A stretch of DNA of 64,000 nucleotides. Origin: a virus. The position numbers and the translations under genes were made by a program. Below, piece by piece: positions 19,601-36,220 of this stretch (position 1 is the stretch's first letter; every line of letters starts with the position of its first letter). Location of the stretch: IMG/VR virus record IMGVR_UViG_3300032360_001735, positions 6,411 through 70,410 of that record; one strand, 5' to 3'. The notes under the pieces were generated by a model that was not told where the DNA came from, searched no databases, and saw only the letters and a list, made by a program, of their open reading frames with translations.

Positions 19601-20535
19601 TTTCTATTGTCTTCTATGATTAATACTCTAGGATGAATTACACGCAACATAAACGGAAACATCTTTTTAGTTGCTTCCTTTTCTTCGTCTTTAGCCTCTT
19701 CCTTTTGTTTGGGCGTGTTTTCAACGGGCATTTTCATCAAGTCCTCCTCGCTTGGCATTGCAACCCCAGCGTCTAGCGCCCACATAATATTATGTTTTTC
19801 GCAATATTCGACCATCCTGCGAACAGGTACTATAAGGTTAAACCCTTCTCCCGCTCCACGGACCAACATTCCTACGTATCTGGCGTCATTTTTTAAATAC
19901 ACCCCGCCGCCGCTAGAACCCGGAAAAGCGGTGCAGGTTGTTTGGTCAAAAATACGCTTGTTCAATTGTTTTAAAATTCTACCGTGCTGAGAGTAGATCC
20001 CGTCTGTCATGCTGTTCGCTCCCATTTGGCCCAGCAGGGAGCCAACATGCAGGAGGTCTGTCCCGAGTGGCGGGATTTTTTTATCAAGATAAAATGTCAC
20101 GCTGCCGGTTACAAAATTGTATTTACGCACACGAAGGAGAGCCAAATCGTGTCCATCTTCGCTTTCTGAGTATTTTAACACCTCTGCGTCCATTTGAAGA
20201 CGACCAACTGTTCTGCCGTTTTGTCGAATTTCCTTGATAATCAAGGGGTCTTTAAATTCTACCAACGTCTTCGGGGAGCCATTAACTAAAACTTTTCTTT
20301 CAGAGCGAAGATTGTCTATAACGTGAGCCGCGGTCCAAACAAAATTCACCAAATTTCCCTTTGTGTCTTTTCGGGTAAATATAACTCCAGAGCCTTCTCC
20401 AGCCGACCAAGGGCCTTCTGATCTAATTGTAACAGACACATTTTGAAGGTGTTCCGCTGTTGATTGCTTCTTTTCTGCCGCAAGCGAGGAGATCGCGAGG
20501 GAGAAACCGAGGATAAGGGTTCCAAGTGCTTTCAT
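19597..20535 (-). CDS. secreted trypsin-like (S1) serine protease
   Basis: Signal peptide; TAAHV (His), DLALL (Asp), PGSSGGG (Ser). Confidence 0.9.
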   Translation of the reverse strand: MKALGTLILGFSLAISSLAAEKKQSTAEHLQNVSVTIRSEGPWSAGEGSGVIFTRKDTKGNLVNFVWTAAHVIDNLRSERKVLVNGSPKTLVEFKDPLIIKEIRQNGRTVGRLQMDAEVLKYSESEDGHDLALLRVRKYNFVTGSVTFYLDKKIPPLGTDLLHVGSLLGQMGANSMTDGIYSQHGRILKQLNKRIFDQTTCTAFPGSSGGGVYLKNDARYVGMLVRGAGEGFNLIVPVRRMVEYCEKHNIMWALDAGVAMPSEEDLMKMPVENTPKQKEEAKDEEKEATKKMFPFMLRVIHPRVLIIEDNRK

Positions 20536-26570: not shown

Positions 26571-26647
26571 TGGCGGGAGCGACGGGACTCGAACCCGCGA
26601 CCTCTGGCGTGACAGGCCAGCGCTCTGGCCGATTGAGCTACGCCCCC
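26571..26647 (-). tRNA. tRNA-Asp(GTC)
   Basis: GGGGGCGTAGCTCAATCGGCCAGAGCGCTGGCCTGTCACGCCAGAGGTCGCGGGTTCGAGTCCCGTCGCTCCCGCCA. Confidence 0.95.
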
Positions 26648-26660
26648 ACCCACCTTTCTC

Positions 26661-26921
26661 TTAGCTGTTTGTCTCCTCCATATCACTGGCGGTTACCTTG
26701 TAGGTTCTCCTAGGTCTTCCAACTCCATAGGTCGATTTACCAACCTCGGTAAGCTCGCCACGATTAACGGCGGAACGCACCTTCATTCGGATGGAGGCGT
26801 CTGTCAGGTTCTTTCCAGACGCTTCTGAAACGTCCTTAACTGTGAACACGGTAGCGTTTGTTGGCCACGTGACACGAACAGAGGGTCTTCCTCTCTTCGG
26901 TTTTTGTGTATTTTCATTCAT
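26661..26921 (-). CDS. small putative DNA-binding protein (AT-hook-like KRGRP plus winged HTH)
   Basis: KRGRP; FTVKDV...IRMKV...GEL; GRPRRTY wing. Confidence 0.6.
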   Translation of the reverse strand: MNENTQKPKRGRPSVRVTWPTNATVFTVKDVSEASGKNLTDASIRMKVRSAVNRGELTEVGKSTYGVGRPRRTYKVTASDMEETNS

Positions 26922-27003
26922 ATCTCGTCAAGATAGACCAGCTACCCGACCTTTGCAAGTTTTATTTGAGAAAAAAATAAAAGGAGGGTATGATAGGGTA
27001 AAG

Positions 27004-27438
27004 ATGACTGTCTTAGACGCCACCTCTCATTTATTCGAATGGTTCAAAACTCATGATTCCTTCGAGGAAAAAAACGTGAAGGATGTTATTCTTATATCTG
27101 ACACTCCAGAAAGAGACAAAGCAGCCTTTTTGTGTTGTTTGGACGAGCTCGTGACAAATGAGATTCTTGGAGTAACAGAAATAAAAGAAAGAAAAATTTG
27201 GGTACTCAAAAAAAGTCTAGAATCCTACGATCAAGGCGTTGATATCCCTTATCCTTTAGCTCTAGAAATAGCAAGCTGCATTGGTAGAATGTGTACGGTT
27301 CTGGGTGACCGCTCCGATGAGGCTGACCCCAAGTCTCTTACTACTAAAGACATAATGAACCTAACATTCATATGCAAAACCCTACAAGGACCGCCTGATA
27401 GTACGACAGATGCGCCACCCCCAGAAATTTCTCTTTGA
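27004..27438 (+). CDS. hypothetical protein, first gene of the plus-strand block
   Basis: Start moved to MTVLD at 27004, downstream of TTGAGA-N17-TATGAT. Confidence 0.65.
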   Translation: MTVLDATSHLFEWFKTHDSFEEKNVKDVILISDTPERDKAAFLCCLDELVTNEILGVTEIKERKIWVLKKSLESYDQGVDIPYPLALEIASCIGRMCTVLGDRSDEADPKSLTTKDIMNLTFICKTLQGPPDSTTDAPPPEISL

Positions 27439-27463
27439 CTTTCTGATAGAAGGGCTTTACTAT
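27435..27463 (+). promoter_or_regulatory. sigma70-type promoter preceding a long non-coding region
   Basis: TTGACT-N17-TACTAT. Confidence 0.7.
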
Positions 27464-27468
27464 CTGTC

Positions 27469-27845
27469 AAAAGGTGCGAATCCTTTTCAGCCCGCCGAGA
27501 GCAAACGGTAGGGTTTCCCAAGGATGACCATAGCGGCACGCTGAGCCATCAGCTGATTCCAAAGGGCTGGCTCCTCTAAGCACAGAGGATAAAGGACGGG
27601 TGGGTAATTCCCACCGCAGTAACCCGGCGTGAGCGGTTGACCACTGTAATGAGTTTTTAAGCATAGTCCCTCAACCTTTTTATAAAGGTAAGTGGTTCCA
27701 GTTTTATTACTGGTTGTGTACTGTCTTCTGAATGTCCCATCAGAGTTTTAAAACACTGGGTCCAGAGAAAGAAGAAGCATGCTACATGGAATCCCCTACA
27801 CAGGGGGTTTCATGTCTCATCCGAAAAAGAAGCAATCATGCTTTG
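27469..27845 (+). ncRNA. candidate large structured non-coding RNA (unassigned)
   Basis: No credible ORF; about nine consecutive hairpins directly after a promoter. Confidence 0.55.
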
Positions 27846-27910
27846 GGTTACTAAAAGATTTGACAGGAGCGACATAAGGTTGTAATTTTTATTAATATAT
27901 ATAAGCCAAA

Positions 27911-28516
27911 ATGAAAACATTGTTTATTGGAATAAGTGGCGTGGCCGCATCAGGTAAGGATTTATTTTTCAACCTGCTGAAGAACGAGTTGGACAAAAGA
28001 GGAATCGCTGCTCATAAATATTCACTAGCGGACTCCCTCAAGGGGGAGGTTAATGAATACCTCAAGGAGCACCATCGAGTAGATATATTTAACTGCACCA
28101 GAAGAGAGAAGGATTCTGTCAGGCCGTTTTTAGTATTCCACGGAAGCATGAAGAGGGCTGCGTCTGAAGGTAGACACTGGATAGAAATTTTAGACAAAAA
28201 AATAACAAAAGAAAAATTAACAGGAGTTGTTTGTGTTACTGATATAAGGTACGATGAATTTGAAGGGGACGAAGTAGACTGGATAAAGGAAGAACTTGGA
28301 GGGGTACTTGTCCACATAAAGAGAGAAGCAGTAGAGCCAGCTAACGAGGAGGAAGAGAGACAAGACCCGTCTTTAATAAATAAAAGCAATTATAAAATCG
28401 AATGGCCCACGTTACAAGGGTGTCAAAAGGACATAGAAAGCCAGCTAACAAAAGAATATATAATAAAATTCTCTGATTGGCTTTTAAATGAAAACACCAG
28501 ACGACTTCCTAGCTAA
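27911..28516 (+). CDS. deoxynucleoside monophosphate kinase
   Basis: GISGVAASGKD P-loop, SLADSLK, VTDIRY. Confidence 0.8.
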   Translation: MKTLFIGISGVAASGKDLFFNLLKNELDKRGIAAHKYSLADSLKGEVNEYLKEHHRVDIFNCTRREKDSVRPFLVFHGSMKRAASEGRHWIEILDKKITKEKLTGVVCVTDIRYDEFEGDEVDWIKEELGGVLVHIKREAVEPANEEEERQDPSLINKSNYKIEWPTLQGCQKDIESQLTKEYIIKFSDWLLNENTRRLPS

Positions 28517-35185: not shown

Positions 35186-35202
35186 TTTTTAGAAACAAAT
35201 AA

Positions 35203-35397
35203 ATGAAAGCACTAGTAACAGTAGCGATAGGGATGCTCATTGTAGCATCAGGTTGTTCGAGTACAGTAACCCTTGGCCCGAAGGCTAACGAGAACGAGGT
35301 TCTCGGAGCCACGGCTGGCACAGGCGGCGCGAGTTTAACTCTCCCGCTGGTCAGGGGGGAGGTGACTCCCACGACGACCACGAAGACCAAAAAGTAA
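35203..35397 (+). CDS. small lipoprotein
   Basis: MKALVTVAIGMLIVASGC lipobox. Confidence 0.7.
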   Translation: MKALVTVAIGMLIVASGCSSTVTLGPKANENEVLGATAGTGGASLTLPLVRGEVTPTTTTKTKK

Positions 35398-35415
35398 CAA
35401 TAAAGTTACTCCACA

Positions 35416-35448
35416 CCCCCGTCTTTTTTTGAGGCGGGGCTTTTTTTT
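35416..35448 (+). terminator. intrinsic terminator
   Basis: CCCCGTC...GGCGGGG followed by T8. Confidence 0.75.
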
Positions 35449-35456
35449 GTGTAAAT
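35449..35456 (+). promoter_or_regulatory. GTGTAAAT motif 6 nt upstream of a start codon
   Basis: GTGTAAAT-ATAGGT-ATG(35463). Confidence 0.7.
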
Positions 35457-35462
35457 ATAGGT

Positions 35463-35747
35463 ATGGACTATCAAATTCTCGTCAATATAGCGGTTGGAGT
35501 GGTTACCCTCATGGGCGGTTGGGTTTTTAAGATGATGATGGGAGCCGTAAATGAAATTAAAGCGGAGCACCATGACTTAATGGTCAAGCATCACGAAGAC
35601 ATAGACAAACTAAGAGAAAAGCATAATGCCCTAGCCCTTTCCCTCCCCAAAGAATACGTGAGTAAGGAAGACTTCAAGATGTTCTCAGAGAGAATGAACG
35701 ACAGGTTTGACCGCCTCGAAGAAAAAATAGACGCCCTCAAAGGCTAA
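35463..35747 (+). CDS. N-terminal TM plus coiled-coil protein (holin-like phage protein)
   Basis: ILVNIAVGVVTLMGGWVF, YVSKEDF..F..RFDRLEEKID. Confidence 0.6.
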   Translation: MDYQILVNIAVGVVTLMGGWVFKMMMGAVNEIKAEHHDLMVKHHEDIDKLREKHNALALSLPKEYVSKEDFKMFSERMNDRFDRLEEKIDALKG

Positions 35748-35860
35748 ACTCATGTTCTGGAAGGTCATAAAACGATGTGTTCTTGGCGGGTTTTTAGCGT
35801 TTGGCTTCGGAATCTTTCTAGCGTGGGTATTAACGACGTTAGTTAACAGATAAAAATGCA

Positions 35861-35887
35861 CAAAAAAACGAGCCCGAAGGCTCGTTA
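35861..35887 (-). terminator. intrinsic terminator for the convergent minus-strand genes
   Basis: AACGAGCC-TTCG-GGCTCGTT followed by a T-tract on the minus strand. Confidence 0.75.
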
Positions 35888-35899
35888 GGGTTGTTAGAC

Positions 35900-35913
35900 G
35901 TATATCGTCCACC
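35900..35913 (+). repeat. dispersed 14-mer GTATATCGTCCACC, copy 4
   Basis: Exact match, intergenic. Confidence 0.85.
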
Positions 35914-35923
35914 ACCTATTATT

Positions 35924-36220
35924 TTATTGCTTTTTTCCCCATTTGACTCTATTCCAGCATCTTTCGTGCACATAATAGATAAAGACTTTGGTAAGCACCT
36001 CTACCGCAGCTATTGTTCCGGCTATCATAGGCTCTCCCGTAACAAAATACGAAACAACAAACGTATCTGCGCTAGCTGTTATTCTCCAAGTTGAAGCCTT
36101 AAGTAAAGACCTTTTGCCTGAATCTGGCCCCTCTTCGTCTGGTAATTTTAATCTGAATTTCACCGTGTACCCCCTTTTATCTGTGTTATGTTTTGGACTA
36201 AGGTGAGGGTGTTCTCCCAC
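35924..36220 (-). CDS. DUF2061 membrane protein
   Basis: RSLLKASTWRI...KVFIYYVHERCWNRVKWG. Confidence 0.85.
   Translation of the reverse strand: MGEHPHLSPKHNTDKRGYTVKFRLKLPDEEGPDSGKRSLLKASTWRITASADTFVVSYFVTGEPMIAGTIAAVEVLTKVFIYYVHERCWNRVKWGKKQ

Follow-up and report, generated by a model that had tools for sequence, protein, structure and literature searches.

What is encoded in the hairpin-rich region that lies between two genes, close to a switch in gene direction, in the DNA of an uncultured marine phage? The region is part of a 64-kb window (the whole stretch of DNA that was analyzed, taken from the 70-kb IMG/VR viral record IMGVR_UViG_3300032360_001735, estimated completeness 41%), and an earlier reading of its letters, hereafter the original prediction, had proposed either an undescribed class of structured RNA or an RNA-primed replication origin. 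Our analysis identified window positions 27469-27817 on the plus strand as a gene in its own right, whose product is a highly folded non-coding RNA of ~345 nt and which represents a real and new family of structured RNA genes.

Comparative evidence for a structured RNA gene

The first close relative of this locus (L001), found by exact-pattern and protein-neighbor searches of IMG/VR, carries an RNA that is 81% identical to that of the window, with visibly compensatory differences and gaps of 1-2 nt. For the comparative analysis, three parts of 30 seed sequences were aligned and pairs were counted for structures read from the alignments; in addition, a covariance model of the core was built from its nested helices (128 positions), with the pseudoknots left out of the model. 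The core was 93.0% paired in the 30 seeds (77.0% when shuffled), and the covariance-model alignment of 71 distinct sequences had 96.2% of its cells paired versus 81.3% when shuffled, a level that none of 500 shuffles reached. As a control, sliding the partners by 1-3 columns left 37-50% of the core paired. Changes on both sides were found in 23 of the 36 core pairs, including one pseudoknot, and affected 413 cells versus 118 expected from shuffles. Compensatory base changes therefore exceed the controls, as is characteristic of a structured RNA, and the covariation test that had been suggested for homologues collected through flanking genes came out in favor of an RNA.

The gene has transcription signals of its own. 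A sigma-70-type promoter is located at 27435-27463 on the plus strand (-35 TTGACT, 27435-27440; 17-nt spacer; -10 TACTAT, 27458-27463), where the original prediction had placed it. This promoter scored 9/12 in a promoter scan, and TTGAC was counted by eye at the corresponding upstream place in 26 of the 30 seed homologues, a conservation in position that is expected of a stand-alone RNA gene. Transcription would start near 27469-27471 and, as the conserved promoter is of the sigma-70 type and lies directly upstream, the host polymerase could make the RNA without phage factors. At the other end, an intrinsic terminator spans 27790-27817 on the plus strand (stem 27790-27796/27803-27809, loop, and U-rich tract 27808-27817). 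Its stem was 90.5% paired by column count in the alignment of the 3' domain, and in 28 of the 30 seeds a pattern search detected a C-run/G-run hairpin with U or A after it, so the gene also has its own terminator. The terminator stem corresponds to the GC top of the long ACATGGAATCCCCT/AGGGGGTTTCATGT hairpin proposed earlier, with which the comparative data agree.

The description of the region as hairpin-dense also held: 27464-27870 folds better than its dinucleotide shuffles on the plus strand (z = -3.76; 0 of 100 shuffles equally good), with a z of -3.63 on the minus strand. The strand is indicated by the G-U pairs, which had been taken to favor RNA. The covarying helices contain many G-U cells (alignment pair 81-164, for example, is UG in 50 of its 70 cells), and together with the direction of promoter and terminator these cells argue for an RNA on the plus strand.

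Architecture of the 5' part and the core

From its 5' end, the RNA consists of a hairpin, the conserved helix H2, a variable domain, a compact six-helix core with at least one pseudoknot, and a 3' domain, all on the plus strand. The 5'-terminal hairpin H1 (27469-27487) joins AAAAGG (27469-27474) to CCTTTT (27482-27487), a stem of the original prediction whose arms remain complementary with changed letters in the homologues; H1 was left out of the column counts because the hairpin shifts in the alignment. H2 (27489-27515), predicted as CCCGCCG/CGGTAGGG, is an 8-bp helix (27489-27497/27506-27515) with an internal loop and the conserved loop GAGAGCAAA; it was 95.0% paired versus 83.7% when shuffled (0 of 500 shuffles), with both sides changed in 5 of its 8 pairs. 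Next to it, the variable multi-hairpin domain (27516-27572) contains inner hairpins that differ between subgroups in the alignments and in single-sequence folds; the GAGCCA/TGGCTC stem of the original prediction falls in this domain. Hairpin H4 (27573-27588; CCTCT, 27573-27577, with AGAGG, 27584-27588) appears at the same place in single-sequence folds of most homologues, and its arms differ between the window and L001.

Within the core, hairpin H5 (27599-27615; GGTGGG, 27599-27604, with CCCACC, 27610-27615) was 98.1% paired, with all 6 pairs changed on both sides. It is followed by a closed conserved loop, CGGCGTG (27623-27636), with two invariant C-G closing pairs. Helix H6 (27639-27645/27691-27697; 98.2% paired, 6 of 7 pairs changed on both sides) encloses H7 (27650-27653/27670-27673; 99.6% paired), which has a conserved 16-nt loop, and H8 (27674-27677/27686-27689; 90.0% paired). 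Hairpin H9 (27698-27713; CCAG/CTGG) was 94.9% paired, with 4 of 4 pairs changed on both sides. Pseudoknot PK2 is formed between GGAC (27594-27597) and GTCC (27666-27669), the latter inside the H7 loop. It was 99.3% paired, with 3 of 4 pairs changed on both sides, and its switches run from AU to GC in 9 and 11 sequences and from CG to AU in 2. A second, candidate pseudoknot (PK1; 27629-27631 with 27662-27664) was 90.2% paired.

Comparative pair counts also bore out three further predicted stems (ACCTTT/AAAGGT, CCAGT/ACTGG, and TCTGA/TCAGA). Two others did not survive: CAGT/ACTG clashes with H6, and AAGCATG/CATGCTT is not a helix, its letters being the palindromic end of the direct repeat described below. 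A 5'-3' closing helix taken from the fold of the window alone (CTGTCAAA/TTTGACAG) was rejected, as it is lost in L001.

The 3' domain and a direct repeat across the terminator

The 3' domain is closed by helix H11 (27714-27720 with 27783-27789), which encloses hairpin H10, pseudoknot PK3 and a purine-rich single-stranded stretch, R1. H11 was assessed without an alignment, by comparing the duplex energy of strands from the same genome with that of strands from different genomes (-10.2 versus -6.9 kcal/mol); none of 2000 and, again, none of 3000 permutations was as low. By column, 3 of the inner 4 pairs of H11 are changed on both sides. H11 and the lower terminator stem use the same 4 nt and compete for them. 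All 5 pairs of H10 (27727-27731/27740-27744) are changed on both sides, and PK3, between the H10 loop CCCA (27736-27739) and TGGG (27757-27760), has 3 of 4 pairs changed on both sides and was 79% paired in an unrefined alignment.

R1 (27762-27782), before the terminator, and R2 (27821-27841), just past it, are the two copies of a direct repeat that co-varies between phages, both on the plus strand. The repeat is present in 30 of 30 seeds. The likeness of R1 to R2 had a mean score of 22.6 within a genome, 13.5 between genomes, and 10.0 when shuffled, and in 16 of 30 genomes no foreign R2 scored higher with R1 than its own. R1 is usually one base longer than R2, near the 5' end, as read from the repeat rows. 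The spacing between the copies is 53-69 bp and has no helical phasing. R2 is followed by an AT-rich stretch, lies ~25 nt upstream of the next -35 and is retained where the next gene is convergent. Since one copy lies beyond the terminator, the sequence of the repeat probably matters outside the mature RNA as well.

The 3' tail of R1 and the 5' flank of the terminator make up one strand of H11. For the purine-rich core of R1, we looked for a specific pairing partner and found none. Mapping of the best duplexes pointed to no consistent site other than, for the R1 tail, the linker between H9 and H10, tallies of 5-mer complements returned only U-rich stretches, and the 3' strand of H1 showed no co-variation with R1 or R2 (726 and 417 of 3000 permutations as good). 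The repeat is not a general promoter-like motif either, as it is not enriched in the window (15 matches versus 12.2 expected), and a start codon shared by R1 and R2 is not kept across the seeds.

Some further features of the repeat are recorded here. In six loci (L044, L045, L047, L048, L057, and L007), R2 contains an ATG followed immediately by a stop codon (ATG-TAA, ATG-TAG or ATG-TGA), and in L035 the second repeat extends into the kinase start codon. A 14-nt exact part of R2 also occurs at 20461-20474 on the minus strand, the only such extra match in the window (blast E = 0.003); it lies in the sense of a minus-strand 312-aa open reading frame (ORF), ~60 nt past its start, and may be a chance match in A-rich coding sequence.

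A second element in the same position

In 29 of 80 viral loci around the kinase gene (25 of them distinct), which belong to sister phages and lack the RNA of the window (family A), the same slot is filled by another conserved element of ~450-505 nt (family B; for example, L013, L022, L024, L030, L034, L036, L037, L039, L056, and L064). Family B is mostly ORF-free and extends between the ORF of the upstream winged-helix protein and locus position 2501. Its consensus fold has 64 pairs, 29 of which are changed on both sides, and no Rfam match was found in the 11 loci tested. An exact direct repeat of 12-16 nt, with copies ~185-240 nt apart, is present in 24 of the 25 distinct loci and its sequence co-varies between phages; shuffles reached at least 12 nt in 7 of 500 cases, and four records of 34-89 kb contain exactly two copies each. 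Families A and B have no sequence similarity (nhmmer E > 3). The design of an internal copy plus a copy beyond the end is thus common to two unrelated elements. In L036, a tRNA gene (2367-2439; 71.6 bits) is located between the family-B element and the kinase gene.

Distribution of the family

Homologues were collected from 80 viral loci fetched around the gene for deoxynucleoside monophosphate (dNMP) kinase, after alignment of 30 kinase homologues; the set later grew to 154 loci in total. A nhmmer search with the window RNA gave full-length matches in 30 of 84 loci (24 distinct), and a conserved 27-nt pattern was found in 16 viral contigs, 54 metagenome contigs, and 1 contig among 185,579 species genomes. 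In the 154 loci, a profile search returned 100 matches, of which 77 were distinct and 72 near full length. The core covariance model matched all 77 distinct loci (75-142 bits) and none of 54 other dNMP kinase loci at E ≤ 1. The RNAs are ~70-81% identical in nucleotides where the dNMP kinases are only 38-48% identical as proteins.

Public runs containing the stretch are labeled as marine, seawater or viral metagenomes and come from 17 studies, with two of the samples being possible sources of the DNA of the window. No cultured phage carries the RNA, as a blastn search with the RNA region found nothing in 50,697 phage records. For the neighboring genes, tblastn against cultured phages found nothing for the winged-helix protein and only a 30% match in a Thermus phage for the kinase, and in the search for cultured relatives the reductase reached at most 47% identity. 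The only match among the 185,579 species genomes was a 44-kb contig (L085) of a metagenome-assembled genome titled uncultured Pseudomonadales bacterium. As its RNA copy is identical to that of the viral locus L007, L085 probably comes from a phage and was binned with a bacterium; it is at best a faint hint of the host and no proof of it. Within the searches made, the RNA family appears confined to one clade of uncultured large marine phages. The phages that carry it are abundant in the ocean and uncultured, with genomes of ~160-190 kb.

Expression

One marine oligo-dT RNA library yielded a 269-nt contig that matches 27546-27814 without a difference and ends 7 nt past the terminator stem. In the same run nothing outside 27546-27814, the flanking genes included, was covered, except for a 37-nt piece (28180-28216) with 5 differing letters; a lack of cover is in itself no evidence. 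We consider this contig a weak hint of expression. The 37-nt piece, which is inside the dNMP kinase gene, has counterparts with 5 differing letters in contigs of very high depth from several runs (word depth 45 and 328), and it is presumably a conserved stretch common to other, abundant organisms. No joints of terminator-deleted variants were detected in the contigs of four runs, such contigs showing presence only.

Comparison with known RNA families

The whole window was searched with Rfam 15 (4227 models), and at the gathering score only 4 tRNAs were found. At E ≤ 10, positions 27300-28000 gave one chance-level match of 16.8 bits to leuA-Halobacteria (gathering score 47.9), and the RNA region of 12 homologous loci had no Rfam match at E ≤ 5. 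Known riboswitch models matched neither the window region nor those 12 loci. By these comparisons the RNA family is new, with no relative among the 4227 models, and in the literature we found no description of the RNA. An undescribed class, as the original prediction put it, is consistent with this result, with the strong covariation and with the conserved promoter and terminator. Stand-alone structured RNAs of phages are, as a general kind, already known.

Fremin et al. (2023; PMC10690425) reported 8495 candidate structured RNAs from the DNA viruses of IMG/VR, 29-151 nt in length. Going by the lengths given there, the full 345-nt RNA would not have been described as such, and parts of it may be among those candidates.

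Two RNAs of comparable size had been ruled out in the original prediction, and rightly so. Transfer-messenger RNA (tmRNA) and RNase P RNA resemble the RNA of the window in size range, in their pseudoknots and in having tRNA genes close by, but the RNA described here lacks paired ends and has no match in ARAGORN or Rfam. In a tmRNA, paired 5' and 3' ends form a tRNA-like domain and there is a tag reading frame; the RNA of the window instead begins with a local hairpin and finishes with a terminator, its ends do not pair, and ARAGORN detected 4 tRNAs and no tmRNA in the window. For RNase P RNA, with its conserved P4 core, the Rfam models had no match even at E ≤ 10.

GOLLD and ROOL, Rfam families that phages and prophages often carry, are roughly 600-800 nt in length. 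The original prediction had described such RNAs as often lying near tRNA genes, and a tRNA-Asp gene (26571-26647) is indeed located ~0.8 kb upstream of the RNA, but the analogy is a loose one. The RNA of the window is, like them, a large and intricate phage-carried RNA with its own transcription signals and tRNA genes nearby; it differs in its length of ~345 nt, in having no Rfam match (the covariance models of both families included, which excludes membership) and in being found only in marine viral and metagenome contigs. GOLLD and ROOL have been treated as large ornate RNAs in cryo-electron microscopy work (PMC12286853).

The 3' end of the RNA invites another comparison. In small RNAs of the Hfq class II type, an A-R-N-rich site is followed by a terminator hairpin and a U tail, and R1 with the terminator and its U tail may be likened to such a 3' module, as the purine-rich R1 stands directly before a GC hairpin and U tract. 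The RNA of the window exceeds these small RNAs several-fold in size, its core is pseudoknotted, and its R1 has a co-varying DNA copy past the terminator, for which they have no counterpart.

Genomic neighborhood and mobility

The upstream neighbor (27004-27438, plus strand) encodes a 144-aa acidic protein with a predicted N-terminal winged-helix fold (AlphaFold2 mean predicted local distance difference test score, 86.4). The best Foldseek matches were MarR/BlaI-type winged helices and were weak (E 0.017-0.04), and the protein belongs to no Pfam or PHROG family. Its true start is the ATG at 27004 and not at 26791, as the homologues all begin with MT[VI]L and the longest ORF (26791-27438, 215 aa) over-extends. 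The TGA stop codon (27436-27438) is located inside the -35 hexamer of the RNA promoter. Downstream, the dNMP kinase is encoded at 27911-28516 on the plus strand (PHROG 139, E = 5e-14). It is preceded by a promoter-like site (27860-27888, plus strand; TTGACA-N17-TAATTT), which was read from the sequence, is kept in L001 and was missed by the promoter scan, and is thus weak. Two stretches of the window without any ORF of at least 100 aa are longer than the RNA region, which the original prediction had called the largest ORF-free one: 688-2749, which holds a tRNA-Met gene (865-941), and 35186-36159.

Among 84 loci with both the RNA and the winged-helix gene, the two were on the same strand in 54, with the protein ending 0-120 nt before the RNA match, and overlapped by up to 25 nt in 15; the winged-helix gene was on the opposite strand, 0.56-2.1 kb away, in 13, and on the same strand but 0.8-1.4 kb away in 2. 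In one phage (L006 and L091) the winged-helix and kinase genes abut and the RNA is ~2 kb off. A convergent gene lies downstream of the RNA in five distinct loci (L044, L045, L047, L048, and L057). As the RNA has moved or been inverted in some phages, it is a module of its own and no untranslated part or leader of a neighbor. The winged-helix gene is present in 26 of 26 family-A loci and in 26 of the 54 others of the L005-L084 set. Its occurrence in 26 loci that lack the RNA, and the fact that it is not always adjacent to the RNA, weaken the idea that its product is an obligate partner of the RNA.

Possible roles of the RNA

The best reading, which we hold with a probability of roughly 0.7, is that of a folded RNA which the host polymerase makes early and which acts in trans. 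The host enzyme would transcribe the gene from the sigma-70-type promoter early in infection, and the GC hairpin and U tract would end the transcript. The product would then act in trans as a folded particle, most likely by binding a host or phage protein, as a platform or decoy, during early infection. In its 3' domain, H11 and PK3 frame the purine-rich R1, which together with the terminator hairpin and the U tail might form an exposed interaction module.

Several points weigh against this reading or qualify the data behind it. An RNA that acts in trans alone leaves R2, which is not part of the proposed transcript, unexplained. In most loci the RNA is co-oriented with the kinase gene and directly upstream of it, so that an added role in cis is possible. 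The contig of the RNA library has a depth of 3 and could derive from DNA carry-over, and contigs show neither ends nor strand. The 5' end of the RNA is placed from the promoter position only. As for the fold, the nested helices, unlike the pseudoknots, served to fit the core alignment, so that their paired percentage is inflated, and PK1 is unproven, having no change on both sides among the 71 sequences.

A cis-acting leader, that is, a riboswitch or attenuator, would use the fold to sense a ligand or factor and to set termination versus read-through into the genes for dNMP kinase, a sigma factor and ribonucleotide reductase, with R1 and R2 as parts of the switch. The position of the terminator between the RNA and a co-oriented block of nucleotide-metabolism genes in most loci would suit such a device, as would the 4 nt contested between H11 and the lower terminator stem and the reach of the second repeat of L035 into the kinase start codon. 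We nevertheless regard it as unlikely, since a leader should keep a fixed, co-oriented position upstream of the gene that it regulates, and the RNA does not: promoter, terminator and R2 are kept with it before the convergent gene of five distinct loci, and also where it is inverted or moved. In addition, the next gene has a promoter-like site of its own in the window and in L001, no known riboswitch model matched, and the sequence downstream of R2, considered as an alternative H11 strand, does not pair specifically with the 5' strand of H11 (permutations did as well in 661 of 2000 and in 1577 of 3000 cases).

Another explanation concerns the repeats only and is compatible with a trans-acting RNA. 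R1 and R2 might be DNA operators for a phage DNA-binding protein such as the winged-helix neighbor, which would account for their co-variation between phages without an RNA partner for their core, for the location of R2 outside the transcript and ~25 nt before the next -35, and for the presence of the winged-helix gene in every family-A locus of the L005-L084 set. Against this, the winged-helix protein is strongly acidic and its fold matches are weak (E of 0.017 or worse), the spacing varies, R2 persists where no co-oriented gene follows it, and the rest of the window shows no enrichment of the motif. R1 is moreover set in a selected RNA context, as its tail and the terminator flank pair with the H9-H10 linker in H11. 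Operators therefore seem to us quite improbable.

Because families A and B each carry an internal copy of the DNA just past their own 3' region, one may also imagine a 'self-addressed' RNA, in which R1 would recognize its own downstream DNA at R2, by R-loop formation or strand invasion beside the AT-rich stretch, and so either prime replication or turn on the nucleotide-metabolism operon next to it. We give this idea only a slim chance; if true, it would be an RNA-guided device for cis-DNA recognition that has not been described in phages.

The RNA-primed origin of the original prediction fares slightly worse and is very improbable. Here, R1 of the transcript would hybridize to the R2 DNA by the AT-rich segment and prime or open an origin. 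Structured or promoter-driven primer RNAs are exemplified by ColE1 RNA II and the T4 origin transcripts, with which the RNA of the window shares a strong promoter, a fold, a place near a strand switch, and a purine-rich segment able to hybridize to nearby DNA. R1 and R2 have the same sense, so that the RNA would be able to pair at R2 with the template strand, and the cumulative GC skew of the window has its minimum at 26-28 kb. This minimum coincides with the flip of the coding strand, where the AT skew flips too, and hence does not discriminate an origin. In a complete relative (G005, the record of L099; 158,301 bp with direct terminal repeats), gene blocks run on the plus strand at 1-50 kb, on the minus strand at 50-90 kb and on the plus strand at 90-158 kb, and the RNA is located at ~90 kb, at the head of the leftward block and beside the divergent switch, as in the window; yet no extremum of the cumulative GC skew was found at its locus. 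The skew analysis suggested earlier thus did not point to an origin. Furthermore, and unlike the primer RNAs, the transcript would be released by a strong intrinsic terminator and its gene moves or inverts relative to its neighbors; its pseudoknotted fold is under selection at the RNA level; and an iteron-type origin is not indicated by only two unphased repeat copies, 53-69 bp apart.

Finally, it is hardly credible that the region encodes one or more small proteins and is conserved at the protein level: the window does contain short ORFs (40 aa, 27732-27854; 32 aa, 27779-27877; 65 aa, 27467-27664 on the minus strand) and a 15-codon ORF (27838-27885) that starts in R2, overlaps the next promoter and has the same length in L001 (two sequences compared), but ORFs differ in place, strand and length between homologues (those of at least 60 aa included, so that no ORF is conserved), several 1-2-nt gaps separate the RNAs of the window and L001, substitutions are compensatory across helices, and no start codon is kept at R1 or R2.

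Implications

Large RNAs whose complex folds are conserved are rare; repeatedly, such RNAs have proved to be ribozymes, riboswitches or assemblies of new architecture. The trans-acting RNA proposed here surpasses the surrounding proteins in conservation, contains at least two pseudoknots and is preceded by a host-type promoter. A co-varying repeat that spans the terminator and recurs in an unrelated element is not predicted by current models of small RNAs or terminators, and this regularity is directly testable by mutation. The family thus provides a defined object of ~345 nt for structure work and for asking why large marine phages need an early RNA.

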